A stretch of DNA of 62,267 bases, counting the filler. It is 6 parts of 6 records of this genome, joined end to end, with 100 filler letters (N's around TTAATTAATTAA, not from the genome) between each part and the next. Parts side by side here need not be neighbours in the genome. Positions count along the whole stretch, not along the records: positions 1 to 10,775 come from SRR22947725_4697; 5 more parts are not named here. The stretch is one strand, 5' to 3'. Of this stretch, positions 603 through 59,734 are shown in pieces; positions within the stretch are counted from its first letter, which is position 1; each line of letters starts with the position of its first letter. The notes beneath the pieces are model-generated. The model was not told the DNA's origin, did not search any database, and saw nothing but the letters and a program-made list of their open reading frames with translations. The translations under genes were made by a program, and so were the position numbers.

Positions 603-1505
603 ATGAGCAAAGAAACTAACAAAACGACACTTCCAGTTCTTAGTCCAGATGGAAGTTTTGATTCATACTTACAAAAAATAAGAAAATTTCCTATGCTGGA
701 TGCAGCGGAGGAATATATTTTAGCAAAAAATTGGAGAGAAAAAGGAGACAAAGAATCAGCTCATAAACTCGTTACTTCACATCTCAGACTGGTTGCCAAG
801 ATTGCAACAGGTTACCGAGGATATGGTTTGCCAATGAACGAATTAGTTTCTGAAGGAAATATTGGATTAATGACTGCTGTAAAAAAATTTGATCCTGAAA
901 AAGGATTTCGATTAGCCACTTATGCCATGTGGTGGATCAAAGCATCAATACAAGAATATATTTTAAGATCATGGAGTTTGGTGAAAATAGGAACAACTGC
1001 CGCTCAAAAAAAATTATTTTTTAATCTAAGAAAAATGAAAAATCAAATTATGAAATCTGATCAAACAGATTTATTACCATCTCAAGTGACAGAAATTGCA
1101 AATCGACTGGATGTAAGTGAAGATGAAGTTAACTCCATGGAACAAAGAATGAAAGGTCCTGAGGCTTCTTTAAACGCAACAATTAAAGGTGAAGAGGGAG
1201 AAACTCAATGGCAAGATTGGGTTGTTGATGAAAATGCAGATCAAGAACTTCAAATTTCCCAACGACAAGAAACCGCTAAAAGAAAAGTTTTGCTTGATAA
1301 AGCAATGTCAGTTTTAAATGAAAGAGAAAAAGAAATTTTATTTGATCGAAGATTAAATGAAGAACCAAAAACATTGGAAGAGCTCAGTCAAAAATATAAT
1401 ATTAGCCGTGAGAGAATTCGACAAATTGAAAACAAAGCATTCGAGAAACTACAAAAAGAAATGCTTGAACAAGCTAAAGAGCAAAAACTAATCTCTGTTA
1501 ATTAA
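603..1505 (+). CDS. rpoH: RNA polymerase sigma-32 factor
   Basis: Sigma70 region 2 (GYRGYGLP..EGNIGLM..KKFDPEKGFRLATYAMWWI), RpoH box QKKLFFNLRK, region 4 HTH ISRERIRQIE; follows rluD as in many alphaproteobacteria. Confidence 0.96.
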   Translation: MSKETNKTTLPVLSPDGSFDSYLQKIRKFPMLDAAEEYILAKNWREKGDKESAHKLVTSHLRLVAKIATGYRGYGLPMNELVSEGNIGLMTAVKKFDPEKGFRLATYAMWWIKASIQEYILRSWSLVKIGTTAAQKKLFFNLRKMKNQIMKSDQTDLLPSQVTEIANRLDVSEDEVNSMEQRMKGPEASLNATIKGEEGETQWQDWVVDENADQELQISQRQETAKRKVLLDKAMSVLNEREKEILFDRRLNEEPKTLEELSQKYNISRERIRQIENKAFEKLQKEMLEQAKEQKLISVN

Positions 1506-2054
1506 TTATAACTTTTCTTCTTCAAGCTTTTTGGATGCTTGAGAAAATCCATCTAAACTTATTTCAATGGCTAAGGGTTGGGGTCCAAAACCTGCAACAC
1601 CAATAGCTACTTTTTTTCCAGAAGAAAAACTTTTCTTTATTTTATTATAATTATCGATTGAAGTTTTGTCTTTAGTGTTATTTGTTAAAATGACCATGCA
1701 ACCAATTACCTCACACTTTGTCCAGGATAAATTTAATTGTTCCTTATCATCAAATTTTACAGCTAGTCTTCTGTTAAGATTTACACCCAAAGGACCTATC
1801 ACGCTTATGATCTCTTTAACGTCATTATCTTTATTTTTAAATCTTACGTAATTAATACTAAATCTAATATTTGAATTTTGTATTTGCAAAGACTGAGAGA
1901 CCTCACAATTTTTTTTACCATGATCTTCAACGCATTGATAAGTCCAATTTGTATATTGTTGAGTAGTCACTTTTGGAGGAGGATCACCTTTCTTATGCCC
2001 GGCATAAGCATGTGAGGAAAATAATAATATGATAACCAACAAAATTTTTAACAT
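1506..2054 (-). CDS. Invasion-associated locus B (IalB)-family exported protein
   Basis: Signal peptide ending AYA; pattern W-x3-C-x8-C-x3-Q, GPLGVNL, WTKCEVIGC, ISLDGF typical of the IalB family; start overlaps the tpsB stop at 2054. Confidence 0.8.
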   Translation of the reverse strand: MLKILLVIILLFSSHAYAGHKKGDPPPKVTTQQYTNWTYQCVEDHGKKNCEVSQSLQIQNSNIRFSINYVRFKNKDNDVKEIISVIGPLGVNLNRRLAVKFDDKEQLNLSWTKCEVIGCMVILTNNTKDKTSIDNYNKIKKSFSSGKKVAIGVAGFGPQPLAIEISLDGFSQASKKLEEEKL

Positions 2055-3790
2055 TAAAACTGTCCTGCTAAACTTATTAAACCTCTATTATCCCAGGTCA
2101 ACCCATCAACATCATTTCCATTAGAATCTTTACCTGGATTATTTCCAAGTTTTTCAGCATAGGTGGCAGTCAAAGCAAAATTTTTATAAATGGGTATTGA
2201 AAAAGATATACCTACTCCTGATAGATCATAATTATTTTTTAAAGAAGTGTTAGTTGCATTCCAATTTTCCCAAGCTTGCTTATGTAGTTGAATTTTTCCA
2301 TAATCATAAAATAATGTTAGCCTTCTATTTTTTGAAAATGTTTTATTAAATTCTAAACTCGATATAAATCCCTGGTCACCTGCCCCTTCATTTGATGGAT
2401 AAGCTCTCACAGCGTTTGGACCACCTAAACTTAACTGTTCAGCACCATCTAAATTTTTATCTGTATACTGGCCATTAAATTTAATCACTGCAGAAACTGT
2501 ATCGGTAATTCTTTGAAAACGGTTAACATTTATTGCTAATTTCCAATAATCTCCATTTGCTTTTGCAGTTAATTGATCGGTATCAAAGTTGCTGGTATTA
2601 TCAGTTAAATCTAAAGAACCAAAAATACCTGTAAATGCCACAGTATTTGCTCCACCAGAAAAATATTTATCCTGATTATTATAAGTTAAATTTAACGATG
2701 ATTTTATAATATCTTTATTACTATTTGATCCAGTATTGAGATCATTGACATAATCATTTCTTGAAAAAGACAAAGATGAAGTCAAACTCTTATCAGGCTT
2801 AATCATTAACTCTTTATTAAACCCTAAAAAAAATTCTGTAGAGTAACCTGTGGGGTCAGTTGAATCAAAGGGTGCTCCAAGGTCATACTTCATTTTAGAT
2901 ACTCTAAATGTTGTTTGTAAACCATCGTAACCAAGAGGTGTTGTTGCTGAACCTGCATAGTAATGAGATCCTTTTGTTATTACATCCGTTACGCTAAATC
3001 TCTCACCTTTATTAAAAACACTATCAAAATTTAAAATATTAGTAACACGCTCATAACCTGATGATCGCGAACCATTATTATCAACTAAGCTGGTAGTTGA
3101 TAGCGTTTTGGTATTTGATGCGGAAATTGTAATGTCTGTCTCTCCAAGTTGCTCTCCTTCAACAAGTTGAGCAATGGCATTAATTCCGGGTGTATTATTT
3201 AAATTTCTAATATTTCGATCAAGTTGAACAATATTTAAAATTTCATTTGGATTAATTTTATTAAATATAAATTTTGATATTCTTTCCCTGGAGATATTGA
3301 GTTCTTTTTGAACATCTGCCTTAATTTCAAGTTTTCCAATCCTACCCTCCACTATATAAATTTGAATTTTTCCATCGCTAATATCTTGTTCAGGTAAAAA
3401 AGCAGTAGCTAGAAAACCTTTTGATCGATAATAAAAGGATACATCTTGCAAAATATTTCTAAGATCAGCATAAGCCAGTTCCTTATTTACTTTATCTCGA
3501 ACTAATTTTTGAAATTCAGAAGATGGGTATTTTTCATTTCCATCAAAACTGAACTCTTTTACAAGTACTTTAATTAAATCTTCTTCTTTTTTTACAGGTT
3601 GCTCAGATTTTTGTTCAAATAACTTATCTGATGGCATTTCTTTTTTTTGCAAATTTTTATTAATTTTTGGTATTTGCTTATTCATATCGTCAACTTTTGG
3701 GATTACAGGATCGGCAGCATAAGCTGAGCTTAATGAAAAGCTTAAGACAAGAGTAAAAAATATTTTAGTTAGTTTTTGCTTTATCACCAC
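2054..3790 (-). CDS. Two-partner secretion transporter TpsB (ShlB/FhaC/HecB family)
   Basis: POTRA (FSFDGN..YYRSKGF..PEQDISDGKIQIYIVEG), DNNGSRSSG, loop-6 LGGPNAVRAY, terminal Phe. Likely start is GTG at 3790 after AGGAG, overlapping the tpsA end, rather than 3862. Confidence 0.92.
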   Translation of the reverse strand: MVIKQKLTKIFFTLVLSFSLSSAYAADPVIPKVDDMNKQIPKINKNLQKKEMPSDKLFEQKSEQPVKKEEDLIKVLVKEFSFDGNEKYPSSEFQKLVRDKVNKELAYADLRNILQDVSFYYRSKGFLATAFLPEQDISDGKIQIYIVEGRIGKLEIKADVQKELNISRERISKFIFNKINPNEILNIVQLDRNIRNLNNTPGINAIAQLVEGEQLGETDITISASNTKTLSTTSLVDNNGSRSSGYERVTNILNFDSVFNKGERFSVTDVITKGSHYYAGSATTPLGYDGLQTTFRVSKMKYDLGAPFDSTDPTGYSTEFFLGFNKELMIKPDKSLTSSLSFSRNDYVNDLNTGSNSNKDIIKSSLNLTYNNQDKYFSGGANTVAFTGIFGSLDLTDNTSNFDTDQLTAKANGDYWKLAINVNRFQRITDTVSAVIKFNGQYTDKNLDGAEQLSLGGPNAVRAYPSNEGAGDQGFISSLEFNKTFSKNRRLTLFYDYGKIQLHKQAWENWNATNTSLKNNYDLSGVGISFSIPIYKNFALTATYAEKLGNNPGKDSNGNDVDGLTWDNRGLISLAGQF

Positions 3791-6700
3791 TTCTCTTCTC
3801 CTCTTCATCATCTTCTGAAATATCTGGTTTATTGTTATCGTCTTGACCTTTGCCTCTTTCATCAGGTCGGTCTTTTGATTTATCTAATAATTTTCTAGGA
3901 TCCTCATCACCTTCTTTAAATTTTCTAAATGCTTTCTGTTCTTCTGGCCTTGCTTTTTCAAAAGATTTTGGATCTGTCGGATCAAACCCATCTCTTAAAT
4001 CTTTATTAAACGATTTTCGACTTCCAGGATTGTTTTTAAATTCTTTTCTTAATTCTTTTTTAAACTGTCTCATTTCCTGTTTTGTACTAAACTGATTTTT
4101 AAAGTCTTTGCTACTAAATAATTCTTTTATACTTCTTGGTTTTGGAGAACTTGTTTCTTGATTAGTGGAGTCAAATTTGCCACCTTGTGATTTTGGAGCT
4201 GGAGCGCCACCAATTGAATTATTACCACGAGGCTCAAAGCTTGGTGCAGACTGATTATTTCCAGGTTTACCAAAATCAGCTCCCGATCCAGTTTCTGGTC
4301 CTGGTTTATTAAATCCAGCATCTCCAGGCATTACAACTTCAATGGATTTTGAGAATGTTCTTCCACCACCACTTGGTCCACCTCCAAATAATGTTGCAAT
4401 TAAGTTTTTGCCCGCATCTGCAATGGTAGTTTGTGCGCTTTTTGCAACAGCATTAGCTGATTTTTCAGTTTTTCTTCCATTACTTTGGGATGATCTTTTT
4501 GATGATGAAGATGAAGATGCTACTGTTCCATTGGTTTGTGTGCCACCCGTTACTGATCCAAAACTAGTATCAGCATCAATTACTCCATAGTTTTTACTTA
4601 CTACTTGATAACCTGTAACACCTGAATAACCTGCTAATTTTTTTGATCTTCCAATTGTTCCATTATAAGTCACATCAGGAGTATCTGGCGTTATTCCGTC
4701 TCTTCTTACTGCAATTGCTTTTGCAACTAACGTGTGAGTATTTGTAATGGTATCATTAACATTTCCATTAATAATTACTTTAGGGTCCATTGATAATAAA
4801 GTTCTCGTTGTTCCATTAGAACCTGTACTTCCCACATCAATATTAGAATTATAAGTTTGTTCCTCATATGTCATTACATCACCTTTAATAGTTGTGGTAC
4901 CAGCAGTAACTGTCATTTTATAGAAACTGTCTGCAGTGTTGTTTGCATTAAAGTTTTCACCATTAAATGCATATCCTACTCGATCACCAAAAGTTACATC
5001 TCCTGTTCCAGCATCAATAGTAAGTGATCTTGCTTTTGCATTCCCCTTACCTTTTAGCGTTCCGCCAAATTCAATATCAGAGTTAGTCGTATTAAATTCT
5101 ACAGGACTTGCTCTTGTACCACTTGCAACTAAAACATCACTTGTATAAGTTTGTGCTCCTGTTGTTGTGATACCAGAATCTAACTGAACATTTCCACTAA
5201 CAATTAACGAAGGTAATGTAATACTAGAAGCTGTAGAAATTCTGCCTCCAGATGACGTAACTGAAGTTACCGATCCTAATGCATTGTTGTGTTCTGCTTT
5301 AAATCCACCATCAGCAATATTAATGATACCTGAAAAAGTATTATTACCTGAAAAAGTTTGTGTGCCACTTCCTCCGAGTAATAGAGTTCCAGCTCCAGAT
5401 AAGACGCCATCAAATGAATTATTTATTGAAGAGTCAATTTCTAATGTAGCTCCAGACTCTATATTAAAATTACCATTTGAGTCATTATTTCTCCCCCAGT
5501 TCCCAGAAAGAATAACTTTACCAGCTTGAACATTAATACCATTAACATCATCCTGATGAGCATTTGAACTTGTATTAGAGAATGTTGTAGTTCCCGTTCC
5601 AACTTTAACTAAATCATATCCATCGTTATTATATTGTGAGATGGTTCCTGAAAAAGTTGTATCTTGATTATTATATCCAAAAGTAACTTGTTTGTTTTGC
5701 CATCTCCAATTTGTTGCATCTCCAGCAAGACCACCAAAATTAATTGAACCTCCTGAGACTACAGTCCAACCTTTTCTAACGTCTGTTCTTGTACTATTAA
5801 GATAAACAGTTGAATATTTCCATGCATCAGCATTTGCAATGTGAACTCCGTTATTTGATCCTGTTGTGTAATTAAATTTTGTATCACCTGTATAAGTATT
5901 GGCTGAGTAGATTGTCATAGTTTTGTTACCTATTTTTCCATAAGTAACTCCACCAACTCCGCTGATAACAGAATAAATTTTATTTCTTCCTGAGCCTCCG
6001 CTACCATCAATAAAATTATGCTGTCCTGTCTCTAGATAAATTCCTCTATTATTATTGTAACCAAAATTAACGTGTCCTAAAGAATTACTAGAATTAACTG
6101 ATCCAAAATAAATTGTTCCTGCATTTTTTAATAAGATATTATCTGGATCATCTGATGAAGGATTGGCACCAAAATTTCTATCTGTTTGCGCTGCAATTTT
6201 ACCTCCATCAATTACTGTTCCTCCAGTATAAGTATTTGTAGCAGTTGGTTCAAAGACTCCAGTACCAGTAACAGTTAATTTCATTGCACCACTTAGTACT
6301 CCTGAAAAAATTCCATTTGTATTAGCTGAACCAATAGTCATATCAGTATTAGAAGATAAATTTGCTGATCCAATTAAACCACCGATAGAAACCGTTGGAG
6401 AACCTCCAGATGTTGTAATGGCTGAGTTTCCAGAAACTGTAACCGTTGAATAAGTTTGACTAGGGGCAAATGAATCTGCTGCGATTGTAGCAACTGTTAC
6501 CCCGCTCATTTCAACTGAACCTCTTGGAATATTTACGCTAATTAAATTACTTCCACCTAGGTCTCCGTTTAAGGTAACTGTACCTGAGGTATTTGCAGTT
6601 AACCTAACTTTTTGATCATAAGCTGCCATCTGGATATCACCTGATTGAGAACCATGACCCAAGTTAAATGCAGCACCTGTCCAAGGTCCTCCACCATATC

Positions 6701-9700
6701 GGTCAGTTTGTACAACTAAATCACTGTCATACCAGACATCAGTACTTATTGAGTCATCATTTGTTGGTGAAAACTCTATGCTTGAAGAATTTGATATGGG
6801 TCTTAATGTAAAGGTACCTGGCGCGCTATGATATCTTCTTCCAACCTCAATTCTTCCTGGATTAATTAAACCATTAGCTCTAATTTCTATTGTTTCATTA
6901 TAATAATCATTTTCTAAAACAGCGGTATTGTTCATGTTTAAAATACCATCTGTTTCAATATAAAGATCTGCTCCTCTATTACTTACATCAAGTGTTCCTG
7001 ATAAAGAAATATCTCCATCAGCATACATTTTAATTTGTCCAAATTGTCCTGTGTTATAACTCCCGGTATCTGTTATAGTGTTTGTTGATCCACCTTGCGA
7101 TCGAACTGTTAATGAACGATTATGCCAAGTATAACCTCCAGCCATAGTAATCGCACCACCGCCTGAGTTTACAGTCAATCCTCCACAGTCAATACCTGAT
7201 ACACAGTTTCTGAAATATTTTAATGTAATTGCAGAATCTGTTGATTGTATAGTTCCGTTTGCATAAAAGTTTCCATCATTTGATACTGTTAATCCTCCTG
7301 TAAACGTTCCACCATTTTTTAACCATAGTGCTCCGGTGTTATCAAAAGTAGATGCTCCACTTACTGTTGGAGCATTAGCAATTGTTATATCTGTGTTAGT
7401 ATTATTTACTGAAACAGATGCGGCAGTAATTGTTCCAAATTTTGCACTAGAAGACTCTTTTACTGTTAAAGCTCCTTGAGTTGAAACAGTTGTATTACCT
7501 CCACTAGCTATACCTTGATTAATTGTAATGGCACCTTTCGTTGTAGATGCTGTTAGTGGCGTATAAGTCAGAGTTAAAGATCCATTGCCAGTTGCTGAGG
7601 AATATCCTTGGGTGTTTGTAATTATTGTACCAGAGCTGTATGAAGAACCTCCTCCGCCACCTCCTCCTGCATCACTTCCATTCCAGTCGCCACCACCGCT
7701 ACCGCCATAGTAACCACCTCCGCCACCTCCGCCTGATCTTCCGCTAGTTCCACCTTTTCCACCAAAACCTAAAGTTCCTTCTAGACCTCTATAATTAACA
7801 GCAGCTCCTCCAGCAGATTGTGTACCGCCGTTACCGCCGTAACCTCCTCTACCATTTGGCCCCATTCCTGAACCTAGTGAATTCTGATTACTTCCACCGG
7901 CTCCTCCTCTAGATCCTGCTCCGCCTATTAAACCACCCCCTTGACCTCCGTCACCACCAGGTTGAGTGTATCTTCTTTGATTTCCACCACCGCCACCGCC
8001 TCCGGCTACATAAATTCTGTCTGATAAAGAATTGCCACCACGTCTAACATCAGTTGCTCCTCCACCTGCACCAGCAGCATGGTTTCCTGGCGCCCCACCT
8101 CCATTAAAACCAGCTAATGCATTTCCCCTAGAATATGGATTCCATGCGGGTTTATAATTTGTTCCAGGATTTACAGTTGTGTTTCCTCCTTTACCTCCAA
8201 CATATAGATATAAAGTTTCACCGGCTGTTACAGTGGAAGTAGCTACTAAACGACCTCCTTTACCACCACGTGCGTTCAGATCACTTGCGCCATGTCCACC
8301 TGCCCCTCCGTAACCATCAATTTCAATTGATGTAACTCCTGTTGGAACCGACCAGGTTTGTTCGGCTCCAGTGTAGGAGAATGACTGTGTTGTTTGATCA
8401 CCAGCTACATATGAGGTGTAAGTTGTTGTTGTTAAATTAATTGAGCCAGCAACATCAACAGCGCCATTAAAAGTAATATTTCCTCCAGCAGTAAAAGCTA
8501 AACTTAAGGAATGTGAACCACCATCACTAATCGTTACTCCAGAATTTGAAACTATGTGTCTTGCTGCTTCTAAAGTTAAAGTGCTCGATGTAGCGCTACC
8601 AGCTGTAGTTCCAATATTAGATGTAATTGTAATATCTCCATTTCCAGAACTAGATCCTCCAGAACCAAAAGATGAACTGTTAGCTGAAGTTTGAATTGTT
8701 ACGTTTGTGCCAGCATTTAGAGCATTAGTTATATTAGTGGCTGCTGAAGAATTTATTGTGTAATCATATGGGTCTATCAACCATAAACCACTTGGACCAC
8801 TTGTTGAGCCGGCGTTAACTCTTATACCATCTGTATTAATAGATGCTCCAGAAGTTTCAATTTGACCACCACTTCCATCAATACCTTTAGCTTCTAATGT
8901 TCCACTTACTTTTGTTAATGAATTTGAATTTTTAATATCAGACCAAGCAACGATGGTTCCACCGGATCCACTTGTTAATGCATTTGCAGTAATTTTTGAG
9001 TTTGAATCAATATTTAAATAAGTTGCTTGAAGTAAATCTCTTGTTCCTTGCCAATCACCACCAATTAAAACTTTTCCTCCACCCGTTTTTCCATCTGCTG
9101 AAATAGTAGCACTATTTACATCAATATCTTTACCAGTGATTTCAATCGTACCACCTTTTCCTTCTTTGTTATCAGAATTTAAAGTTCCTGAAATTTCTGT
9201 TGCTCCTTTAGATCCTGTATCAATTTTAATTTTATTTGCTTGAATAGAACCAGAATTTGAAACTAATTTAATCACTCCATTTTCAGAAACTAAACCATCT
9301 GCTCTTGCATTTGGAAGTTTTACTACTTCATCAACTAAACTTTGAGCAGCGTCCGCTTTAATGGTGACTATGCCGTTTTGGGTTTTGATGGTGCCTTCAT
9401 TTTTTGCCATCGCTTTTAATTTGGATGGTGCAACTTTTACCGTTAAATTGTTACTGTCACTAATTCCTAAAAGCACATCATCACCAGCAACAATTGTGGT
9501 TGCAGCGCTGGTGATAATGTTACCTTTATTATTAACCTGGGGAGATATTAAAGCTACATATTGCCCCTCGATCAAACCTTGATTGACTAACGATGAGTTA
9601 GAATTTGTATTAAACTGATAATTATTATTTAAAAAATTTTGGTTTGTTAGATTTAAAGTTGAAAGAATTGCACCTTCTGCTTTGATTGCTGAATGCGGTC

Positions 9701-10055
9701 CTGTTAAGATTCCTGTTGGATTAACTAAAAATAATCTTCCATTTGAAAATATTTTTCCATTAATAATTGATTGGCCACTTAAAACATTATTTAAAATGCT
9801 AGCTTTAGATCCGGGTTGATTAAAATGAACGGAAGCATCTCGACCAACATTAAAGCTTTGCCAATTCACAATAGCTTGGTTGGTTGATTGATCCACATTT
9901 AAACGATCAATGGCTGCATAATTAATATTAACTTGTCCTGACACAACGTTACCACCTTGAGGTAAGGCTAGCCGGTCTAACTCTGCGTAAACATGAATTG
10001 GAGCACTAAAAAAGTATATGAGAAATATACTTAACCAGTGTATTACTTTTTTCAT
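3765..10055 (-). CDS. TpsA filamentous-haemagglutinin/HMW1-like exoprotein (~2100 aa) with glycine-rich domain and autotransporter-associated beta-strand repeats
   Basis: Signal peptide; TPS domain (LPQGGNVVSG..NWQSFNVG..FNQP..LVNPTGI); GG-x-I-x-I repeats to WLIDP; Gly-rich block; G-x-G..NTYTGGT repeats. ATG at 10055 follows AAGGA. Confidence 0.92.
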   Translation of the reverse strand: MKKVIHWLSIFLIYFFSAPIHVYAELDRLALPQGGNVVSGQVNINYAAIDRLNVDQSTNQAIVNWQSFNVGRDASVHFNQPGSKASILNNVLSGQSIINGKIFSNGRLFLVNPTGILTGPHSAIKAEGAILSTLNLTNQNFLNNNYQFNTNSNSSLVNQGLIEGQYVALISPQVNNKGNIITSAATTIVAGDDVLLGISDSNNLTVKVAPSKLKAMAKNEGTIKTQNGIVTIKADAAQSLVDEVVKLPNARADGLVSENGVIKLVSNSGSIQANKIKIDTGSKGATEISGTLNSDNKEGKGGTIEITGKDIDVNSATISADGKTGGGKVLIGGDWQGTRDLLQATYLNIDSNSKITANALTSGSGGTIVAWSDIKNSNSLTKVSGTLEAKGIDGSGGQIETSGASINTDGIRVNAGSTSGPSGLWLIDPYDYTINSSAATNITNALNAGTNVTIQTSANSSSFGSGGSSSGNGDITITSNIGTTAGSATSSTLTLEAARHIVSNSGVTISDGGSHSLSLAFTAGGNITFNGAVDVAGSINLTTTTYTSYVAGDQTTQSFSYTGAEQTWSVPTGVTSIEIDGYGGAGGHGASDLNARGGKGGRLVATSTVTAGETLYLYVGGKGGNTTVNPGTNYKPAWNPYSRGNALAGFNGGGAPGNHAAGAGGGATDVRRGGNSLSDRIYVAGGGGGGGNQRRYTQPGGDGGQGGGLIGGAGSRGGAGGSNQNSLGSGMGPNGRGGYGGNGGTQSAGGAAVNYRGLEGTLGFGGKGGTSGRSGGGGGGGYYGGSGGGDWNGSDAGGGGGGGSSYSSGTIITNTQGYSSATGNGSLTLTYTPLTASTTKGAITINQGIASGGNTTVSTQGALTVKESSSAKFGTITAASVSVNNTNTDITIANAPTVSGASTFDNTGALWLKNGGTFTGGLTVSNDGNFYANGTIQSTDSAITLKYFRNCVSGIDCGGLTVNSGGGAITMAGGYTWHNRSLTVRSQGGSTNTITDTGSYNTGQFGQIKMYADGDISLSGTLDVSNRGADLYIETDGILNMNNTAVLENDYYNETIEIRANGLINPGRIEVGRRYHSAPGTFTLRPISNSSSIEFSPTNDDSISTDVWYDSDLVVQTDRYGGGPWTGAAFNLGHGSQSGDIQMAAYDQKVRLTANTSGTVTLNGDLGGSNLISVNIPRGSVEMSGVTVATIAADSFAPSQTYSTVTVSGNSAITTSGGSPTVSIGGLIGSANLSSNTDMTIGSANTNGIFSGVLSGAMKLTVTGTGVFEPTATNTYTGGTVIDGGKIAAQTDRNFGANPSSDDPDNILLKNAGTIYFGSVNSSNSLGHVNFGYNNNRGIYLETGQHNFIDGSGGSGRNKIYSVISGVGGVTYGKIGNKTMTIYSANTYTGDTKFNYTTGSNNGVHIANADAWKYSTVYLNSTRTDVRKGWTVVSGGSINFGGLAGDATNWRWQNKQVTFGYNNQDTTFSGTISQYNNDGYDLVKVGTGTTTFSNTSSNAHQDDVNGINVQAGKVILSGNWGRNNDSNGNFNIESGATLEIDSSINNSFDGVLSGAGTLLLGGSGTQTFSGNNTFSGIINIADGGFKAEHNNALGSVTSVTSSGGRISTASSITLPSLIVSGNVQLDSGITTTGAQTYTSDVLVASGTRASPVEFNTTNSDIEFGGTLKGKGNAKARSLTIDAGTGDVTFGDRVGYAFNGENFNANNTADSFYKMTVTAGTTTIKGDVMTYEEQTYNSNIDVGSTGSNGTTRTLLSMDPKVIINGNVNDTITNTHTLVAKAIAVRRDGITPDTPDVTYNGTIGRSKKLAGYSGVTGYQVVSKNYGVIDADTSFGSVTGGTQTNGTVASSSSSSKRSSQSNGRKTEKSANAVAKSAQTTIADAGKNLIATLFGGGPSGGGRTFSKSIEVVMPGDAGFNKPGPETGSGADFGKPGNNQSAPSFEPRGNNSIGGAPAPKSQGGKFDSTNQETSSPKPRSIKELFSSKDFKNQFSTKQEMRQFKKELRKEFKNNPGSRKSFNKDLRDGFDPTDPKSFEKARPEEQKAFRKFKEGDEDPRKLLDKSKDRPDERGKGQDDNNKPDISEDDEEEKRSGDKAKTN

Positions 10056-10297
10056 TGATCCTTTCTTGGATCGCAACAACTTTTAATACTTAAAGCTTTA
10101 TATTTTTTTTTTGTTTTTTTTTAAAAAACAACTAAAAAAAATATTGCAACCACAATCAGATTATAAACCAAAATGAGTGCATAGCCTAAGCTATACGTAT
10201 AATTATTGATGTTTATAAAGGTAGTTAAACCAAGGTTAATTAGTAATGACAAAATATCATTAGTATCTGAGGTTGTATTTATTGGCTTAAATAAAAT

Positions 10298-10775: not shown

Positions 10776-10875
10776 NNNNNNNNNNNNNNNNNNNNNNNNN
10801 NNNNNNNNNNNNNNNNNNNTTAATTAATTAANNNNNNNNNNNNNNNNNNNNNNNNNNNNNNNNNNNNNNNNNNNN
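10776..10875. other. Artificial contig spacer
   Basis: 44 N + TTAATTAATTAA (stops in all six frames) + 44 N. Confidence 0.99.
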
Positions 10876-22437: not shown

Positions 22438-22537
22438 NNNNNNNNNNNNNNNNNNNNNNNNNNNNNNNNNNNNNNNNNNNNTTAATTAATTAANNNNNNN
22501 NNNNNNNNNNNNNNNNNNNNNNNNNNNNNNNNNNNNN
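22438..22537. other. Artificial contig spacer
   Basis: Same 100-nt N/TTAATTAATTAA linker. Confidence 0.99.
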
Positions 22538-27165: not shown

Positions 27166-28400
27166 ATGTTCCGTAACGCGGCGAGGCGACTTGTTCCGCT
27201 CGTTTCGTCATCGCGAGGTTTCGCCTCCGAGGCGTCTGGGCAAAAGTCTGGGGTGCGTGTGTCTGCCTTCGCGTTTTCCTATCAATCCTTGATTCTCTCC
27301 AACGCCAGTGGCGCGGCGCGCACGGCGGTTGTGGTGGTCGCACTCGCAAACGTTGCCGACGCGATCTTTAGAGTTCCCCCTCACCGTATGCCTTTTCGCT
27401 TGCGCAGGGTTCTGGCGGGATCCTCTTGGGTCTGGCCGGGGCCGGGGCTGGGTTGTATGCGGCGCGCGAGCAGGGCTACCTCGACACGTTGCTGGGCGCC
27501 CCGAGCAACAAGATCCCCACGGCCGCTGACTATGCAAAGGTGCGATCGGCTATTGCCGACGTGCTGGACAGCGACACGCACGACGACGGATCGTACGGTC
27601 CGATTCTGGTTCGCCTGGCCTGGCACACGTCCGGAACCTATGACAAGGCGACTGGCACCGGGGGCTCCAATGGCGCCACCATGCGCTTCAACCCGGAGTC
27701 GGGCTGGGGCGCGAACGCCGGCCTGAAAACGGCACGTGACGTCCTCGAGCCGGTCAAGAAGGCGTTCCCGTGGATTTCGTATGCCGATCTCTGGACGCTG
27801 GCCGGCGCGGTGGCCATTGAGGAGATGGGCGGTCCTGAGATCCCCTGGAGGCCCGGGAGGTCTGATAAGGAGGAGAAGACGCACGTGCCGCTCCCGGATG
27901 GTCGTCTTCCTGATGGGGATAAGGGTTCTGACCACGTGCGAGACATCTTTTACCGCATGGGGTTCAATGATCAGGAGATTGTTGCTCTCGTCGGTGCCCA
28001 CGCGCTTGGGCGCTGTCACCCGACCTCCAGCGGCTGGGACGGCCCGTGGACGCGCGCGCCCACGACGTTTTCGAACGAGTACTTCGTTCAACTGGCTGAC
28101 AATAAATGGAAGAAGAAGAAGTGGTCCGGACCGGAGCAGTACGAGGACCCCACCGGTGACCTGTGCGTCTTTTGACTTGAATCAAACCCCGACGTCTGAT
28201 GAATCTCACTCGTGTCCGATCGCCCATCCACCCACCTATTCGGCAGGATGATGCTCCCCGCCGACATGTGCCTCCTCTGGGATCGTGGATTCAAGAAGTA
28301 CGTTATGGAGTACAAAAATGACGAGGACAAGTTCCGCGCCGACTTTGCCAAGGCCTTTTCCAAGCTTCTCGAGCTGGGCGTGCCCTTTGCCTCTGCCTGA
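27166..28400 (+). CDS. Cytochrome c peroxidase-like class I heme peroxidase with mitochondrial presequence; introns 27253-27407 and 28163-28246
   Basis: [13 protein letters not shown] presequence; [30 protein letters not shown]; splicing restores DLMMLPAD. Confidence 0.9.
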
Positions 28401-29877: not shown

Positions 29878-32635
29878 ATGGAGCGGCACAAGCGTCCAAC
29901 GATGTCGGTCGATAAAGGAGCAACCCGCATTCCTCTGCCGCCCTTGCAGACGCAGGTATTGGCGGGAGAGGTCGGTGAGGCTGGGCAAGACGGGAATGAC
30001 GAACTGAATTTGAAAATCACGCCGCTGTCTGTCACGACACAGCACGTGTTCGTCGACTGTACGAATGGTTTTGGTGCTGAGAGTGAATTTGGGGCGAAAC
30101 GTGCGTCCACGAGCTCCTCGAACGAGATTGCTGCCCATTCCTCGACTGATCGTTCCCACTCCCGCTCGCTCTCCACGGGTGTTGAGGTGGCGTCGGCGAG
30201 CGTCAAATCGATGTCGGCGGGTCCGTTGTCTTCGGTGAACGTGGTTGTGCGCGTCAGGCCGCTGCGGGCCGCGGAGGCTGGGTCGGCCTCCGTCGTGTCG
30301 ACGGTGAATCAGGGGGACGTGCACCAGGTTGTGCTGAGTGATCCGAGTCGCGATGGGTCGGGTCCGTTTACGGTCCAAGTGGACGCGGCTCTTCCTTCCT
30401 CTTCGACGCAGGCTGACGTGTTTGGCGTGGTGGGCTGGCCGATGGTGGACCACTGCATGGATGGGTTCAACTCGACCATCTTTGCCTATGGGCAGACTGG
30501 CTCGGGGAAGACACACACGATGATGGGCGACATCGAAGATGAGCAGCAGGCGGGGCTTGTTCCAAGGGTTTTTGCTTGTCTGTTCGAGGCCATTCGTGCA
30601 AGGGCCAGTGACGGCGAGGACGACTCGTACACCATCTCGTGCTCCTTCCTCGAGATCTACAACGAGGAGGTCACCGACTTGCTGCATACGTCGTCGACGA
30701 ATTTACAAATCCGCGATGGGGATGTGAAGCGTGGCGTGTACGTGCAGGGCCTGAGTTCGCATCCTGTTGCGAGCCTGGCAGACGTGCTGCGGTTGATTGC
30801 GTTTGGCTCGGAGAATCGGAAGATTGCGAGTACCGAGTTGAACGAGCGGAGTTCGAGGAGCCACTCTGTGTTCACGGCGACGATCACGTGGGAGGGGGTA
30901 CGAGCCGGGGTGAAGACGTTCCGGAGCAGCAAGCTGAATTTGGTCGACCTGGCGGGCAGCGAGCGGGTGGGGAAGAGCGGTGCCACCGGCGAGCAATTGG
31001 TGGAGGCGAGGAGTATCAACAAAAGCTTGAGTGTGCTGGGAAGGGTTATTGCGCGGCTGGTGGATAAACAGGTTGGCGGCGGTGGAAATGTACACGTGCC
31101 GTACAGGGACTCCAAACTCACATTCTTGTTGCAGGTGCGTTTCGTCGTCGGCGGATCTTTACGATATCGCGGGCCGCGGGTCGCGCTTTAGACATACCTA
31201 GCCTGACTTCGATTCTTCCTCGTGCCGTTTCACCCCCGTCGATGCAGGAGAGTTTGGGCGGCAACAGCAAGACGGCAGTTGTGGCGACGGTTACACCAAG
31301 TGCCTGCTCCGCCGGAGAAACATACTGCACCCTGGCGTTTGCCGCCGGGGCGAAGAAGATGAAGTGCCGGGCAGTTGTGAATGAGGATGAGATGGAACGC
31401 GGCAGCCTAAACGAGGAGATGATTCGGGCCCTCCGGGAGGAGAATGCCATTCTGCGGGCAGAGCTGGACGAGAGTCGCGTCGAGGCAGAGATGGCTGGCA
31501 GTTTGCAGAGCAGTATGGAGATGTCCAGATATCATTCGGAGAAGGTAGAGACACTGGAACGGGAGCTGGAACAGATTCGGATGTTGTTTGATCAGAACTC
31601 GGCGGTACGGTCTTTGTTCCGGCGAGCTCTCGACTCTGGATGGTCGCCGATGGGTTTCTCACTCGTGATTCACACGCGTTGCCACAGGTTATTGGGATGT
31701 TGCGCGCCGAGCAATCGGTCATCCAACGGGAGCTCGTGGAGAGCAAGGCGACGGCGCTTCGGGCCACGCAGGAGGCCAGCACGCTTCGCGCGAGCAACGT
31801 GAGCCTGAGCAATGCCTTCGAGGCGCTAGAAGAAGAGAATTCCAGGTTGCAAGGAGCACTGGAGAACCTCCAAGAACAGTTCGTGCTCGATAACGGCGAG
31901 CTGGAGCAGGCCAAGATAGACATGGCCAAAGAAATTGAGCGGCTGGCGGCAGACGCCGAGCTCGAGGCAAGTTCGCTGCGAGAGAAGCTCGAGGAGATCA
32001 AGTCAGCACGTCAGAAGGAGGTGGCAGAGATGGAGACGAAGCTGGTCCTCTTGGAGAAGGACCTTGCCCACAGCAACGACAAGGCGTCGTCCCTCAGGAA
32101 GCGTATGGATGATGCGGCGGAGTTCAAGGCGATTGCGGACTCTTCGAGGGTAGAGATCAAGATGCTGAAAGAGAAAATGGCCGAGTTGAAGGAAGAGTAC
32201 ATGGAAGAGCGCCAGAAGCTTGCGGCAGACCTTGCGTTGGCGAGGAGCAACGAGCGTGCAAGCTGCGAGGGTTTGGCCCTTGCGACACTGGAAAAGCAGC
32301 AACTGACTGCAGAGATCGAGTCAATGCGCAAAGAACACGAGCGCGATCTGAAAGAGCGGGCTGAAGCGGCCGACAGACTCGAGAAACGGGTCAAGGATGA
32401 GAAGGCTTCCGTGGCAAAATATAAGCGGATGGTGGGGGAGATCAGCAAGCTCGTTGACTGGGCCCAGTCTAACCAAGCTGGATCCGCCGCCGCCGCCGCG
32501 GCTGTGATGGCAGCTTCGAATGAAAACGACGCGATCAAGCCTTCGCCTGCGGCTCAGGCGGCTCTCCGCATCGCCCGCATGAGCCTGTCGAATGGGAATG
32601 GGGTGTCCACCCACGTGCTGCGCGACGTCAACTGA
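29878..32635 (+). CDS. Kinesin motor with coiled-coil tail (kinesin-12-like); introns 31135-31247 and 31605-31687
   Basis: FAYGQTGSGKT, LEIYNE, SSRSH, LVDLAGSE, HVPYRDSKLTFLLQ|ESLGGNSKT; long heptad tail. Confidence 0.9.
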
Positions 32636-33062: not shown

Positions 33063-33162
33063 NNNNNNNNNNNNNNNNNNNNNNNNNNNNNNNNNNNNNN
33101 NNNNNNTTAATTAATTAANNNNNNNNNNNNNNNNNNNNNNNNNNNNNNNNNNNNNNNNNNNN
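33063..33162. other. Artificial contig spacer
   Basis: Same linker. Confidence 0.99.
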
Positions 33163-43602: not shown

Positions 43603-43702
43603 NNNNNNNNNNNNNNNNNNNNNNNNNNNNNNNNNNNNNNNNNNNNTTAATTAATTAANNNNNNNNNNNNNNNNNNNNNNNNNNNNNNNNNNNNNNNNNN
43701 NN
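43603..43702. other. Artificial contig spacer
   Basis: Same linker. Confidence 0.99.
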
Positions 43703-55903: not shown

Positions 55904-56003
55904 NNNNNNNNNNNNNNNNNNNNNNNNNNNNNNNNNNNNNNNNNNNNTTAATTAATTAANNNNNNNNNNNNNNNNNNNNNNNNNNNNNNNNNNNNNNNNN
56001 NNN
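55904..56003. other. Artificial contig spacer
   Basis: Same linker. Confidence 0.99.
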
Positions 56004-56485: not shown

Positions 56486-56653
56486 GGATCGTAAATGGCC
56501 ACGCGGATTTTTTCTTTTTTCTATTGTCTACCGGGCCATGGGGTCCTCCGAGGACGACGAGGCTCGTCGTACGGGAAAAGGAAAATCCATTTCCCAACTT
56601 TGTTTCACCTCCCGGGAGCGCCTCCGGGCCGTGCTCGAGTTTGCATCATCATA

Positions 56654-59600
56654 ATGCATGCGAATCTCGAACGCGCGCTGGGACCAGTGTACGAGGCGAT
56701 CGACAACCGGGAGTTTAAGAAATGCTCGAAGTTGGTCGAAGCCGTGCTCAGGAGGTACCCCCGCTCCCATCTGGTGCGTTCGCTCAAGGCATATGTCGCG
56801 GCACAGCTCGGGAAGTCGGAGATCGCGGCGCAGATCCTGCGCGAGGTCAACGCCGAGGGCGCAGAGGATGACCGGGTGCTGCACACCATGTCGTTTGTGT
56901 ATGCGGCGATTGGCGACAGTGGCGGGATGCTAGACGCGTACATGTCGGCGGTGGAGAAGCGACCGAACAATGCTGGGATCCGGGTCGGCCTGTTCGGGCA
57001 GCATGTGCGTCGCTTGTCGTACATCTCTCAGCAGCAGGAGGCGCTCAAGCTGGCAAAGTTGGATACTGCCAACTCAGACAGATACGTGTGGTGGAGCATC
57101 TGCTCGCTGATGATGCAGTTTATATCGAGCAATGGGTGTGGCTGGCGTGGCAAGAGGGGGGACGGCTGCGAGGCCGCCAGTGCTGGGGATGGAAGCTCGT
57201 CCGTGGGTACGAAGCTCGTCCAGCTGGCATATTCGATGGCGGAGCGGCAAGAGAAGCTCTCGGGTACGCTGTCGTACGAGAAATTTTTTCTGATGACCGA
57301 GTTGCTTTGTGGATTGGGGCGGCACGATGAGGCTGCGGAGCGGGGCGTTCGGTTCGACACACTGTGCACGGATTCGATTCCGTCTTCGGAAAAGGCTGCG
57401 TTTGTTGGGTCGCTGCATGTGCGGGCTGGGGCTTTTGAGGCGGCAAGCGGGGTGTATTTAGATAGTGTGCGGGCGGATCCCCATGATTGGGTCGCGTGGC
57501 ACATGTACCTGGCGACGATGTTGCCGGAATTGGTCGAGGACCCGGCAGCGTTGCCGCTAGGGGGGAGGATTGATGGCGGAATTGTGGAGGCGTGGGACAT
57601 GCTTCATTTGAAAGAGATATGGGCTGGGGCCTGTGCGGCCGGTGGCTTGGACGGGGATCTCGCAACGCGGTTGGAACATGTGGCCCGGGTGTTGGATGGG
57701 CTGGGCGAGCAGCTCCCGAAGGATCAGAGGACGACGCGTGCACTTGCCCTGGCTGGATTAGAAGTAGCTAAGTACGAGTTTTTGTGTGCTCGACTTGGGC
57801 ACGGCGGAGGGCAGGAGGGGCTGTGCGAGGCTGTACTGTGCGCTGTGCCTCGTTTGGCAGTGTATTCGAGCTTTGGGGCAGATCTGAGGGGTTACTTGGC
57901 GTATCTGGACGCCACACAAAAGCATCGAGTGGCCATCGAGGGGCGAGAGGCATGCCTAAAGGCGGCTTCCGAGCTCCGGAATGGCGCGGATTGCTCGCCG
58001 GTGTCCGAGAGCAAGGCCTTTGTCTGTGTCATCAATGGGTTCATGTTGCAGGTTGAGGTGGGTGCCACACTTGCCACTGCGTCAGAGCTGATCGAGACCT
58101 ACTTTGATAACGTGCACCTCGTCAAGGACTATGACCCCAAGGACCGTGGGCTTGGTGAAGAACTCTTGGTGATTGCCGTCAGTTCCCTGCTTGAGGAATC
58201 CCTGGGAGCGGGACGTGTGGTGGGGCGGGATTGCAATCGAGGCGATAATACGGGAAGGATATCGATCGTGTCGGCTCTGTTGCTCGGCCTTGTGTTCATC
58301 GACGCGGCACAGCAGGCTCGCCGTGTGTCGGCGCCCCTGAGACTCGCGGCATCAGCCATCTACGGATTGCTTGGGGCAGAATCTCTCGCTGCCGCCGAGT
58401 TTGAGGCATTGGATATTAAAGGGGTTCTACACGATAGTTTGACGGGCCATTGGATGATCCCCATGATAGCTGCAGCCTGCCCGAGCGAGGAGTCGTACCA
58501 AAAGTGGTTCAAAGGGATCGACAAGCTGCACACGGTGCAGGCTCAGGAGGCACGAGATGCCCTGTTCACGGTATATGAGGAGGGTACATACTCGAAAGTC
58601 CCGGAGTTTGTGGACTTTATCAATTGTCTGGACAAATCGAGCACCCTCTATGTGTACAGGAGTGAGGCAGCAATGGCCGCCTGCAGAAAAGCATGCCTTT
58701 CCGGTGGGACAATTGAGCCCGTGGATATGAAAGACATTCCACAGGTGCATGGAATCATTCACAACGACGACCTGACCCTGCGCCCGGCATGGTACCCCCC
58801 GAGCCTCGATGGGCCATTGTTCGAGGTGCATGGGTGGTGGGAGCAGTTGTACGCCGGTGACACGCTTGCATCGACACCCGGAGGATTGAGTGACGCGTGG
58901 TGGTTGCGTCAGTACGCTCCGACCGTCCCACCATCGGGACAGCGGGCCAATTGGGAGGGTAAACTCAACCAGCAGCTGGCCCTCCGTCTGAGGTTCCCCG
59001 GTATTCTGGCAGCGGTCTGCTCCGGAAGGCGAGCAGACCCCCCGGAAAAGATCGCGGCAGATTCTGTATCTTGGTGGACCCGCTCTGCTCTTGAGGCAGC
59101 CGGGATTGCGTCTCCTACCTTGACTAATGACCCCAGCCAGCTCGCGCTGCAGCTGGCTGAGGCCATGTTGCCAGGGACGGACACCTCGGACATCGCCTCA
59201 GTATCCCTTCTGCGGGCTCTGACCGTACTCGTAGGATATCAAGTGGTGTTTGGAAGCGATAACAAGGGGCAGGTTCCGGACGAACTCGAGCGACTGGCCA
59301 AGGGCGTCACCGGCGTGGGTACCCGATGCGCTGAAGCGCTTCGGAGGAAACCCTTCGCGGGCGTGCCATTTCTCGCGCGAATTGCCTCCGAAGAGTTTCT
59401 ATGGGTGTCGCACATGATATATGTGTACGCCAATGCCGATGGAGATGGCATCGCGCCTAAGGCGTCGTTGGCTGCGGTGGCCATGGCAGTTTCCGACTCG
59501 GCCGACTCGCTGAGCGCTGCACTCGGATGTCTCGACCCGCTCGCCGAAAGCATAGAGACCTTCAAGTCCTCATACCACCCTCTGTCCGACTGCATGCGCC

Positions 59601-59734
59601 GCATCCAAGGATACGACGTTGACAAATGCCTGTCCAACGTCACTGGCGCCATGGCCTTGACCCGCGCCAGGATTCAAGACGCCCTGAGCGCGCTCGACGC
59701 CCTCACTACGAAAACCATGGCGCTATGCGTGTAG
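56654..59734 (+). CDS. NatB N-acetyltransferase auxiliary subunit (NAA25/MDM20-like)
   Basis: ERALGPVYEAIDNREFKK N-terminus, TPRs, QQQEALKL..YVWW, LDIKGVLHDS, YEEGTYSKVPEFVDF; ATG 56654. Confidence 0.85.
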   Translation: MHANLERALGPVYEAIDNREFKKCSKLVEAVLRRYPRSHLVRSLKAYVAAQLGKSEIAAQILREVNAEGAEDDRVLHTMSFVYAAIGDSGGMLDAYMSAVEKRPNNAGIRVGLFGQHVRRLSYISQQQEALKLAKLDTANSDRYVWWSICSLMMQFISSNGCGWRGKRGDGCEAASAGDGSSSVGTKLVQLAYSMAERQEKLSGTLSYEKFFLMTELLCGLGRHDEAAERGVRFDTLCTDSIPSSEKAAFVGSLHVRAGAFEAASGVYLDSVRADPHDWVAWHMYLATMLPELVEDPAALPLGGRIDGGIVEAWDMLHLKEIWAGACAAGGLDGDLATRLEHVARVLDGLGEQLPKDQRTTRALALAGLEVAKYEFLCARLGHGGGQEGLCEAVLCAVPRLAVYSSFGADLRGYLAYLDATQKHRVAIEGREACLKAASELRNGADCSPVSESKAFVCVINGFMLQVEVGATLATASELIETYFDNVHLVKDYDPKDRGLGEELLVIAVSSLLEESLGAGRVVGRDCNRGDNTGRISIVSALLLGLVFIDAAQQARRVSAPLRLAASAIYGLLGAESLAAAEFEALDIKGVLHDSLTGHWMIPMIAAACPSEESYQKWFKGIDKLHTVQAQEARDALFTVYEEGTYSKVPEFVDFINCLDKSSTLYVYRSEAAMAACRKACLSGGTIEPVDMKDIPQVHGIIHNDDLTLRPAWYPPSLDGPLFEVHGWWEQLYAGDTLASTPGGLSDAWWLRQYAPTVPPSGQRANWEGKLNQQLALRLRFPGILAAVCSGRRADPPEKIAADSVSWWTRSALEAAGIASPTLTNDPSQLALQLAEAMLPGTDTSDIASVSLLRALTVLVGYQVVFGSDNKGQVPDELERLAKGVTGVGTRCAEALRRKPFAGVPFLARIASEEFLWVSHMIYVYANADGDGIAPKASLAAVAMAVSDSADSLSAALGCLDPLAESIETFKSSYHPLSDCMRRIQGYDVDKCLSNVTGAMALTRARIQDALSALDALTTKTMALCV

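Follow-up and report, generated by a model that had tools for sequence, protein, structure and literature searches.

What does a gene of the IalB family do at the end of a two-partner secretion (TPS) cassette in a SAR11 bacterium? IalB has carried the label of an invasion factor since the 1990s, and the invasion role of ialB belongs to a pathogen, Bartonella bacilliformis; to our knowledge the molecular job of the protein is not known, and we know of no host of SAR11. The question is raised by the first piece of the window, by which we mean the whole stretch of DNA analysed here (62,267 nucleotides, filler included), where three co-directional genes, tpsA, tpsB and ialB, lie on the minus strand at positions 1506-10079. 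We read this cassette as an insertion belonging to the flexible genome of SAR11, which would combine a type Vb (two-partner) system for a giant beta-helical surface protein with a dedicated ialB, the product of which would act on the passenger in the periplasm; we give this reading a probability of about 0.5. What was observed in its favour is the gene content and domains of the cassette, a conserved coupling of its genes, insertion polymorphism, purifying selection and repeated independent linkage.

The coupled tpsA-tpsB-ialB unit

The first-pass annotation of this DNA had proposed a tpsA, tpsB and ialB-family trio at 1506-10055, and profile matches for all three confirmed it (Table 1). TIGR01901, the NPXG-type haemagglutinin N-terminal model, matches TpsA at aa 71-143 (58.7 bits, 4.1e-16), and an NPTG motif was found at aa 120, inside the TPS domain. 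TpsB matches both the POTRA_2 profile (PF08479, 59 bits, 4.2e-16) and the ShlB profile (PF03865, 64.5 bits, 1.4e-17). The two marks of type Vb secretion, a TPS exoprotein and a ShlB-type POTRA/barrel transporter, were both recognised by these profiles, according to which the unit encodes a type Vb pair plus a third gene. Sec-type signal peptides were read from the translations of TpsA, TpsB and IalB. A classical autotransporter (type Va) was rejected for TpsA, which has no PF03797 match at E up to 10; its Pfam scan at the same threshold returned only the TPS domain and a chance-level EAP30 match.

TpsA further contains a glycine-rich region, which accounts for a local GC peak. The orthologue at locus L001 shows a PF21722 (Gly_rich_2) match at this region, and PATR passenger-type repeats, which are shared with autotransporters, come next in the orthologues; the TIGR02601 match of the window TpsA is weak. 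The charged tail of the protein was read as disordered, and its coding stretch overlaps the start of tpsB. A length variant of the tail, in which 183 bases are skipped in frame (3923->4107), was seen in contigs of three metatranscriptome runs.

The longest open reading frame (ORF) of tpsA spans 3765-10079, and its most likely start is ATG 10055, in the context AAGGA-N5-ATG, which is also where the first-pass annotation had ended the unit. For tpsB the longest ORF is 2054-3862. A start at 3862 is ruled out by stop codons upstream of the Met-Met in orthologues, and the candidates are ATG 3811 or 3808 and GTG 3790 or 3787 (after GAGGAG), every one of which lies inside the 3' end of tpsA (stop codon at 3765-3767). 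The GTG start inside the tpsA end that had been annotated is therefore one possible codon, beside ATG 3811 and 3808. The described overlap between the tpsB stop and the ialB ATG is present as TAATG, with one shared base. Contigs from four metatranscriptome runs of four studies match portions of ialB, of tpsB and of the 3' end of tpsA at 90-99% identity; RNA-library contigs bridge tpsB/ialB (X1, X3) and tpsA/tpsB (X1). Such contigs prove neither transcription nor one transcript, and we take them as no more than a weak hint and read nothing into the stretches that they leave uncovered.

The identification of the third protein as IalB was upheld both by hidden Markov model, the match spanning positions 1-130 of the 131 of PF06776, and by fold. 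An AlphaFold (AF2) model (predicted local distance difference test 82.7) shows a beta-sandwich with two helices, which matches Bartonella henselae IalB (3dtd) in Foldseek (E 8.5e-8, TM 0.54-0.67) and in VIA (Z 13.9, root-mean-square deviation 2.8 over 137 residues). An IalB alignment profile compared with PDB chain sequences gave no match. As modelled, the fold points to a periplasmic protein-binding module and gives no activity. Cleavage of the Sec signal peptide was read after residue 18; the first 30 residues contain no L-x-x-C lipobox, the earliest Cys being at position 41. All four Cys (41, 50, 114 and 119) are invariant among the aligned relatives, and the protein is probably disulfide-bonded, with two such bonds predicted. 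A profile search of the full library found 611 IalB representatives with E values up to 0.001, of which only 9 reached 1e-30; almost all have the length of a single domain.

IalB is under purifying selection, with a ratio of nonsynonymous to synonymous substitution rates (dN/dS) of 0.07-0.14 within each group of relatives and ~0.33-0.36 between groups, the latter at saturated dS. This bears on an alternative, by which IalB would be tied to the adhesin at or beyond the outer membrane, as a surface co-adhesin or as a partner decorating the exoprotein. Gene linkage fits such a role equally well, and surface exposure would also fit the passage of one report by which antisera to the IalB of a Bartonella species impeded the invasion of erythrocytes in vitro. 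We nevertheless consider a surface role quite improbable. With a Sec signal only, and neither TPS domain, barrel nor lipobox, IalB has no apparent outer-membrane route; exposed parts usually vary, whereas IalB combines strong purifying selection with a length held at 181-182 aa beside TpsA orthologues of 1459-2471 aa; and the available portion of a 2026 preprint places Bartonella IalB at the inner membrane.

Linkage of IalB to type V genes within and outside SAR11

A word-indexed protein search gave 14 IalB relatives at 45-98% identity, the alignment of which was then used to scan one genome per prokaryote species. The scan returned 20 loci, all with Pelagibacteraceae or Pelagibacterales labels except for one contig binned as Tamlana. 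In each of the 20 (IalB 45-98% identical) a TpsB homologue runs right up to the IalB start and the TAATG overlap is kept; a TpsA homologue precedes in 19, and the twentieth contig (strain HIMB109) begins inside tpsB. Since it recurs in 20/20 loci, the tpsB-ialB arrangement is far beyond chance. Not one of these closest IalB homologues sits beside rpoH without the TPS genes.

The cassette occupies more than one chromosomal site. In five loci, as in the window, rpoH and a pseudouridine synthase gene come downstream, and purA is visible upstream in two of these five; the cultured strain HIMB109 carries its tpsB-ialB at this same site. A second site is common to twelve loci of lower similarity, the IalB of which is 45-49% identical; there, Pfam matches (L012) identify a fatty-acid oxidation gene on one side and cyclophilin, peptidase and arginase genes on the other, and L007 provides a third context. 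The first-pass annotation had raised the question of whether rpoH lies directly beside purA in relatives. We observed that in 5/5 Pelagibacteraceae genomes without a ShlB match the two genes are convergent and a few bases apart, and that the RpoH of one of these genomes is 93% identical to that of the window. Therefore, the ~8.8-kb block is accessory DNA. No boundary repeats were seen by eye between filled and empty site, and, in agreement with the earlier statement that no integrase is visible, neither an integrase nor any other recombinase gene was seen among the flanking genes.

Two further observations concern these loci. At the second site a prolyl isomerase of the cyclophilin type, extended by 56 residues at its N-terminus, is convergent on ialB (L012:10496-11140, minus strand; same position in L009-L020), and is possibly an exported folding enzyme. 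The contig binned as Tamlana (L008, JBMTVT010000103.1, 3410 bases) comes from a metagenome-assembled genome (MAG) of the Flavobacteriia and holds a SAR11-type tpsA-tpsB-ialB end with IalB at 47% identity; its assignment to Tamlana is probably a binning error.

Next to the cassette stands a larger population of SAR11 IalB genes. Taking the best IalB match per genome among 151 genomes of the family, PF06776 was found in 109 (94 over the cut-off; the count includes one weak match from the unpublished genome G071) and PF03865 in 18, with the two matches adjacent on one contig in seven genomes. Each of the five cassette-bearing genomes has a second, low-scoring IalB. Nineteen further high-scoring SAR11 IalB loci without TpsB were retrieved. 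In ten of them the TpsA repeat region found tblastn matches no more than 10 kb away, and in the five loci scanned these matches are PATR-repeat proteins of 1074-2921 aa, with LysR, CHASE2-SpoIIE, FecR, pilin-like and T2SSE genes among their neighbours. One more SAR11 IalB is divergent from a 902-aa classical autotransporter.

At L022, L030, L036 and L027 (G090, G037, G083 and G055) IalB paralogues lie beside PATR giants of 1477-2921 aa, which adjoin CHASE2-SpoIIE, an unassigned 465-aa protein, FecR-domain proteins and LysR. A Sec signal peptide and a conserved membrane helix at the C-terminus were recognised in these four giants, which contain neither barrel nor TPS domain. The same set of CHASE2-SpoIIE, unassigned protein and FecR genes, together with an alternative oxidase, precedes an IalB-less SAR11 TPS locus (L040, G017:C1:321000-340900), in which tpsB comes before tpsA (>=2989 aa, i.e. 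at least that length). The Skp/OmpH family (PF03938) was found in one of the five cassette-bearing SAR11 assemblies (G001-G005), which are incomplete; a general periplasmic chaperone may be missing in these bacteria, a hint that we do not use as an argument.

In order to look beyond SAR11, we took the best IalB match per genome from 401 genomes of the class of G001 (Alphaproteobacteria by the family's taxonomy). The IalB profile at E up to 1e-5 matched 23 of these, three from SAR11 (>170 bits) and 20 others (<=50 bits). A type V gene lies within ~3.5 kb in nine of the 20 non-SAR11 loci. Classical autotransporters were found beside IalB at L058, L065, L074, L075, L076 (3.3 kb away) and L077, and three of the nine loci are TPS-linked, in other TpsB clades: at L060 IalB is near a TpsA-TpsB pair plus an autotransporter; at L068 a gap of 25 bases separates ialB and tpsB, and a TpsA of at least 3057 aa is divergent from them; and at L063, in a genome of 68% GC, the tail of an MBG-repeat protein, tpsB and ialB follow one another in the order of the window. 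The tpsA-tpsB-ialB linkage is thus a recurring one, and is repeated in other TpsB lineages.

In four genomes of 1.3-3.7 Mb, namely G331, G167, G196 and G143 (L060, L065, L075 and L034), a single PF03797 match was found, and it is the autotransporter beside IalB. G369 and G310 have two such matches and G478 and G447 four, one of them in each genome being the neighbour of IalB. With so few PF03797 matches in genomes of 1.3-5.4 Mb, chance adjacency would be well under 1% per genome. Type V genes are, therefore, a frequent neighbour of this part of the IalB family, and IalB is a rare partner of TPS systems. A different setting was seen at L072 (G157:C68, 9454-10760, minus strand; 60% GC genome), where two tandem IalB-family genes stand beside a TonB-dependent receptor with an STN domain.

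Quick trees with SH-aLRT support place all TPS-linked IalBs in one clade (97 and 98), beside the clades linked to PATR giants; the TPS-linked clade that had been suggested as a subject for phylogeny does exist. In the TpsB tree, which includes a row from the unpublished genome G193 (L085), all SAR11 TpsBs form one clade (100), and the IalB-linked ones a subclade (99) nested among IalB-less TpsBs. The three IalB-linked TpsBs of other genomes fall into at least two unrelated clades, from which it follows that the partnership arose at least three times.

These data make it very unlikely that there is no functional link, ialB being simply carried along with tpsAB as a block that spread among SAR11. 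Such hitch-hiking is compatible with the single IalB and TpsB clades, by which the SAR11 cassette could stem from one ancestral arrangement, and with the frequency of IalB genes without adhesins. It does not sit well with a one-base overlap that persists where protein identity is down to 45% and the chromosomal site differs, with the low dN/dS of IalB, with independent IalB-TpsB linkage in three other genomes that differ in gene order and TpsB clade, or with the four genomes in which the sole autotransporter adjoins IalB.

Another explanation would make IalB an envelope scaffold or sensor, a MotY-N-like docking domain that would anchor or position large envelope machines, or report on them, and serve any bulky structure that crosses the periplasm. 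The second-best VIA match of the model is indeed a flagellar LPHT ring chain (8z5n_A, Z 9.8, 126 residues), the rest being at background, and SAR11 IalB paralogues occur among pilin, T2SSE ATPase, CHASE2-SpoIIE and FecR genes and near PBP2, RodA and bactofilin. A fold match gives no function, however, and Z 9.8 is moderately above background; a type V protein is the most frequent neighbour of the nearest IalB relatives, and the TAATG coupling is specifically to TpsB. We regard the scaffold explanation as unlikely.

Possible role of IalB and comparison with known systems

In the reading that we prefer, TpsA would be exported by Sec and then recognised via its TPS domain by the TpsB outer-membrane pore. 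IalB would likewise be exported by Sec, and would be made together with TpsB through the TAATG overlap, this coupling setting its amount to that of the pore. In the periplasm it would hold, escort or tether the very long repeat chain during or after transit, and the window cassette would be one case of a wider partnership of the IalB family with type V passengers. A periplasmic location is suggested by the Sec signal, the lack of a lipobox and the four invariant Cys. IalB would act on the passenger, and not on TpsB alone, because what its neighbourhoods share is not one particular transporter but a very long beta-helical passenger. From the Sec signal peptide, the conserved Cys and the gene context we infer a putative periplasmic chaperone; the location, the physical contact and the chaperone or tether activity are to be taken in this conditional sense.

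Several observations weigh against this reading. Since most of the 20 SAR11 loci go back to a few ancestors, they cannot be counted as 20 independent observations. Most TPS systems can dispense with IalB: in the 401-genome sample, only one of the 30 best-scoring ShlB loci (matched stretch +/-1.5 kb; the 29 without IalB include one from the unpublished G193) has an IalB, and among the other SAR11 ShlB loci (11 loci in 10 genomes, a count that leaves out two fragments in G066) there is none within ~6 kb. The autotransporters of G004 and G005 have no adjoining IalB. On the side of IalB, 11 of the 20 non-SAR11 loci are without a type V gene nearby, and the remaining eight of the 19 SAR11 loci show no adhesin, five of these eight being on contigs <10 kb. 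Adhesin neighbours are absent from IalB of the L021 type and of the L029/L033 clade, and from the core SAR11 paralogue, which sits between an aldo-keto reductase gene and argG and is very distant from the TPS-linked IalB in the tree. No IalB-TpsB or IalB-adhesin fusion was found, in a weak test whose one irrelevant match covered 14% of the query. A predicted complex of mature TpsB and mature IalB scored 0.00 in two runs, with no controls folded and own alignments unused, and counts neither for nor against a contact. Finally, the authors of the 2026 preprint, in its available portion, thought that the link between IalB and trimeric autotransporters may be incidental.

Taken together, the interpretation of the first-pass annotation is partly supported. 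It had proposed a three-partner variant defined by IalB; recurring linkage and a clade of its own speak for such a variant, but IalB is not a general third TPS partner (1/30; 0/11). It had also taken IalB to be dedicated to TPS, which agrees with the coupling to tpsB but not with relatives that adjoin classical autotransporters, PATR giants and trimeric autotransporters. More tentatively, and with considerable doubt, the IalB family may be a so far unrecognised periplasmic helper of type V secretion at large (Va, Vb and Vc), as well as of PATR giants, across Alphaproteobacteria. If this were true, what is known as the 'invasion' phenotype of Bartonella ialB would reflect impaired biogenesis or display of an adhesin, and not direct invasin activity.

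The classical examples of type Vb are FhaB/FhaC of Bordetella and ShlA/ShlB of Serratia. The window cassette resembles them in its TPS-domain TpsA and its TpsB with POTRA and ShlB barrel, which are adjacent and co-directional, and in its long repeat exoprotein. Unlike them, it has a coupled third gene with an IalB fold after tpsB, its passenger carries a glycine-rich domain and a charged disordered tail, and its host is a streamlined marine oligotroph. The periplasmic helpers of FHA biogenesis, Par27 and DegP, are general factors encoded elsewhere. Three-gene TPS variants are known as HMW1A/B/C, with a glycosyltransferase, and CdiB/A/I, with an immunity protein. Like the window cassette, these consist of a TPS pair and one dedicated extra gene in the same operon, whereas IalB of the window is exported, small, non-enzymatic by fold, and conserved instead of hypervariable. 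A contact-dependent inhibition reading of the cassette was rejected: TpsA has no VENN, VDNN or ELYN motif and ends in a low-complexity tail, and the third gene comes after tpsB and is exported and conserved. An HMW1C-type reading was rejected on sequence.

As the first-pass annotation had presumed of the TPS role of IalB, none has been described in the literature searched: we found no paper linking IalB to two-partner secretion, none on invasion associated locus B in Pelagibacter, and, among those examined that pair SAR11 with two-partner secretion, none dealing with an IalB-type cassette. The nearest precedents involve trimeric autotransporters (type Vc). In the accessible parts of these sources, an ialB homologue lies directly downstream of badA in Bartonella henselae, where an operon and protein association were suggested; batA and ialB are neighbours in Brucella and cited as bicistronic, with IalB predicted to be periplasmic or in the inner membrane; and the 2026 preprint links 188 IalB genes to trimeric autotransporters in Hyphomicrobiales. 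The badA and batA cases share with the window an IalB-family gene immediately beside a type V adhesin gene; they are type Vc, whereas the window is type Vb and further genomes are type Va. As far as these portions of the texts go, IalB is known in print beside trimeric autotransporters only, TPS-linked IalB was not found there, and the Bartonella and Brucella adhesin authors, who noted the proximity, left the relation and the function of IalB open.

Operon-encoded small envelope helpers are described, in the available text of the sources, for the enterobacterial trimeric lipoprotein (Grin et al. 2014) and for TpgA of Acinetobacter Tol5, both needed for adhesin biogenesis. There too the gene for a small envelope protein is in one operon with that of a type V adhesin; the two helpers belong to the outer membrane, whereas IalB of the window is without a lipobox and belongs to a different fold family (3dtd). 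A lipoprotein-helper reading of IalB was rejected, there being no lipobox.

Very large adhesins are already known from SAR11. A study of coastal SAR11 (ISME J 2025, PMC12636525) describes 'autotransporter adhesin' genes of 5-9.5 kb as habitat-linked flexible content beside pilus and type II secretion system (T2SS) genes. Its main text is without IalB, hemagglutinin or two-partner secretion, and a keyword search of its supplement returned one IalB gene cluster listed as specific to a coastal genus. The PATR giants beside IalB paralogues sit among pilus/T2SS-type genes as described in that study, and the cassette shares with those genes a SAR11 investment in very large surface adhesins; unlike them, it stands between rpoH and purA and uses TpsB. 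The ~2100-aa TpsA that the first-pass annotation had found surprising in an oligotroph was seen, but with coastal SAR11 adhesins in print (PMC12636525) it is less of a surprise. Our observations add a defined secretion route and an accessory gene to these adhesins, and bear on the question of whether SAR11 cells, though called 'free-living', become attached to particles or other cells. Together with the wider pattern (TPS linkage of at least three origins, the sole autotransporter beside IalB in four genomes, and the SAR11 PATR giants), the cassette leads to a testable hypothesis, in which giant type V passengers are helped by IalB on their way through the periplasm or while inside it.

The window and its other features

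The window consists of six contigs, as is evident from the five N44-TTAATTAATTAA-N44 linkers by which they are joined. The GC content of the six pieces is, in order, 0.35, 0.35, 0.60, 0.37, 0.53 and 0.58, and the record is mixed and of metagenome type, not one genome. The label of a SAR11-like genome given by the first-pass annotation is sound, on protein identity, for piece 1 only, the IalB, RpoH and pseudouridine synthase of which are 98-99% identical to those of a Pelagibacteraceae MAG; it does not extend to the mixed remainder.

Table 1. Coordinates of the features identified in the window
Feature	Position	Strand	Details
ialB	1506..2054	-	182 aa; PF06776 63.1 bits (cut-off 22.1), 3.8e-17
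TAATG junction	2052..2056	-	tpsB stop and ialB start overlap by one base
tpsB	2054..3811	-	Omp85-type: signal peptide, POTRA, ShlB barrel, C-terminal Phe
tpsA	3765..10055	-	giant exoprotein, ~2096 aa from ATG 10055; 2104 aa from TTG 10079
TPS secretion domain of TpsA, aa 61-279	9243..9899	-	PF05860 3.3e-21, 76.8 bits (cut-off 33.5)
Glycine-rich region of TpsA, aa ~600-800	7680..8282	-	up to 46 Gly per 100 aa
Low-complexity C-terminal tail of TpsA, aa ~1860-2104	3768..4502	-	Pro/Gly-rich, then Lys/Glu/Asp-rich
rpoH-type sigma factor	603..1505	+	Sigma70 r2, r4, r1_2 domains
AT-rich spacer between purA stop and tpsA start	10056..10297		probable promoter region
purA 3' part, last 149 codons	10298..10775	-	PF00709 profile positions 277-416 of 416
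Linkers	10776-10875, 22438-22537, 33063-33162, 43603-43702, 55904-56003		
Kinesin motor	29878-31191	+	PF00225, 1.2e-89
Peroxidase	27426-28175	+	
NatB/MDM20 subunit	56495-59734	+	

The core genes rpoH and purA flank the unit as had been annotated, with the qualification that purA is partial. rpoH is convergent with ialB and ends one base from the ialB stop. purA lies on the tpsA side, upstream of tpsA, and is cut by the contig end at 10775. In the spacer that follows it there is a terminator-like hairpin at 10179-10196; a promoter scan gave 25 sites against 21.7 expected from shuffles, i.e. no excess. Eukaryote-type genes were observed on two of the high-GC pieces, one with the kinesin motor and the peroxidase and the other with the NatB subunit, and another piece of the window carries two TonB-dependent receptors.

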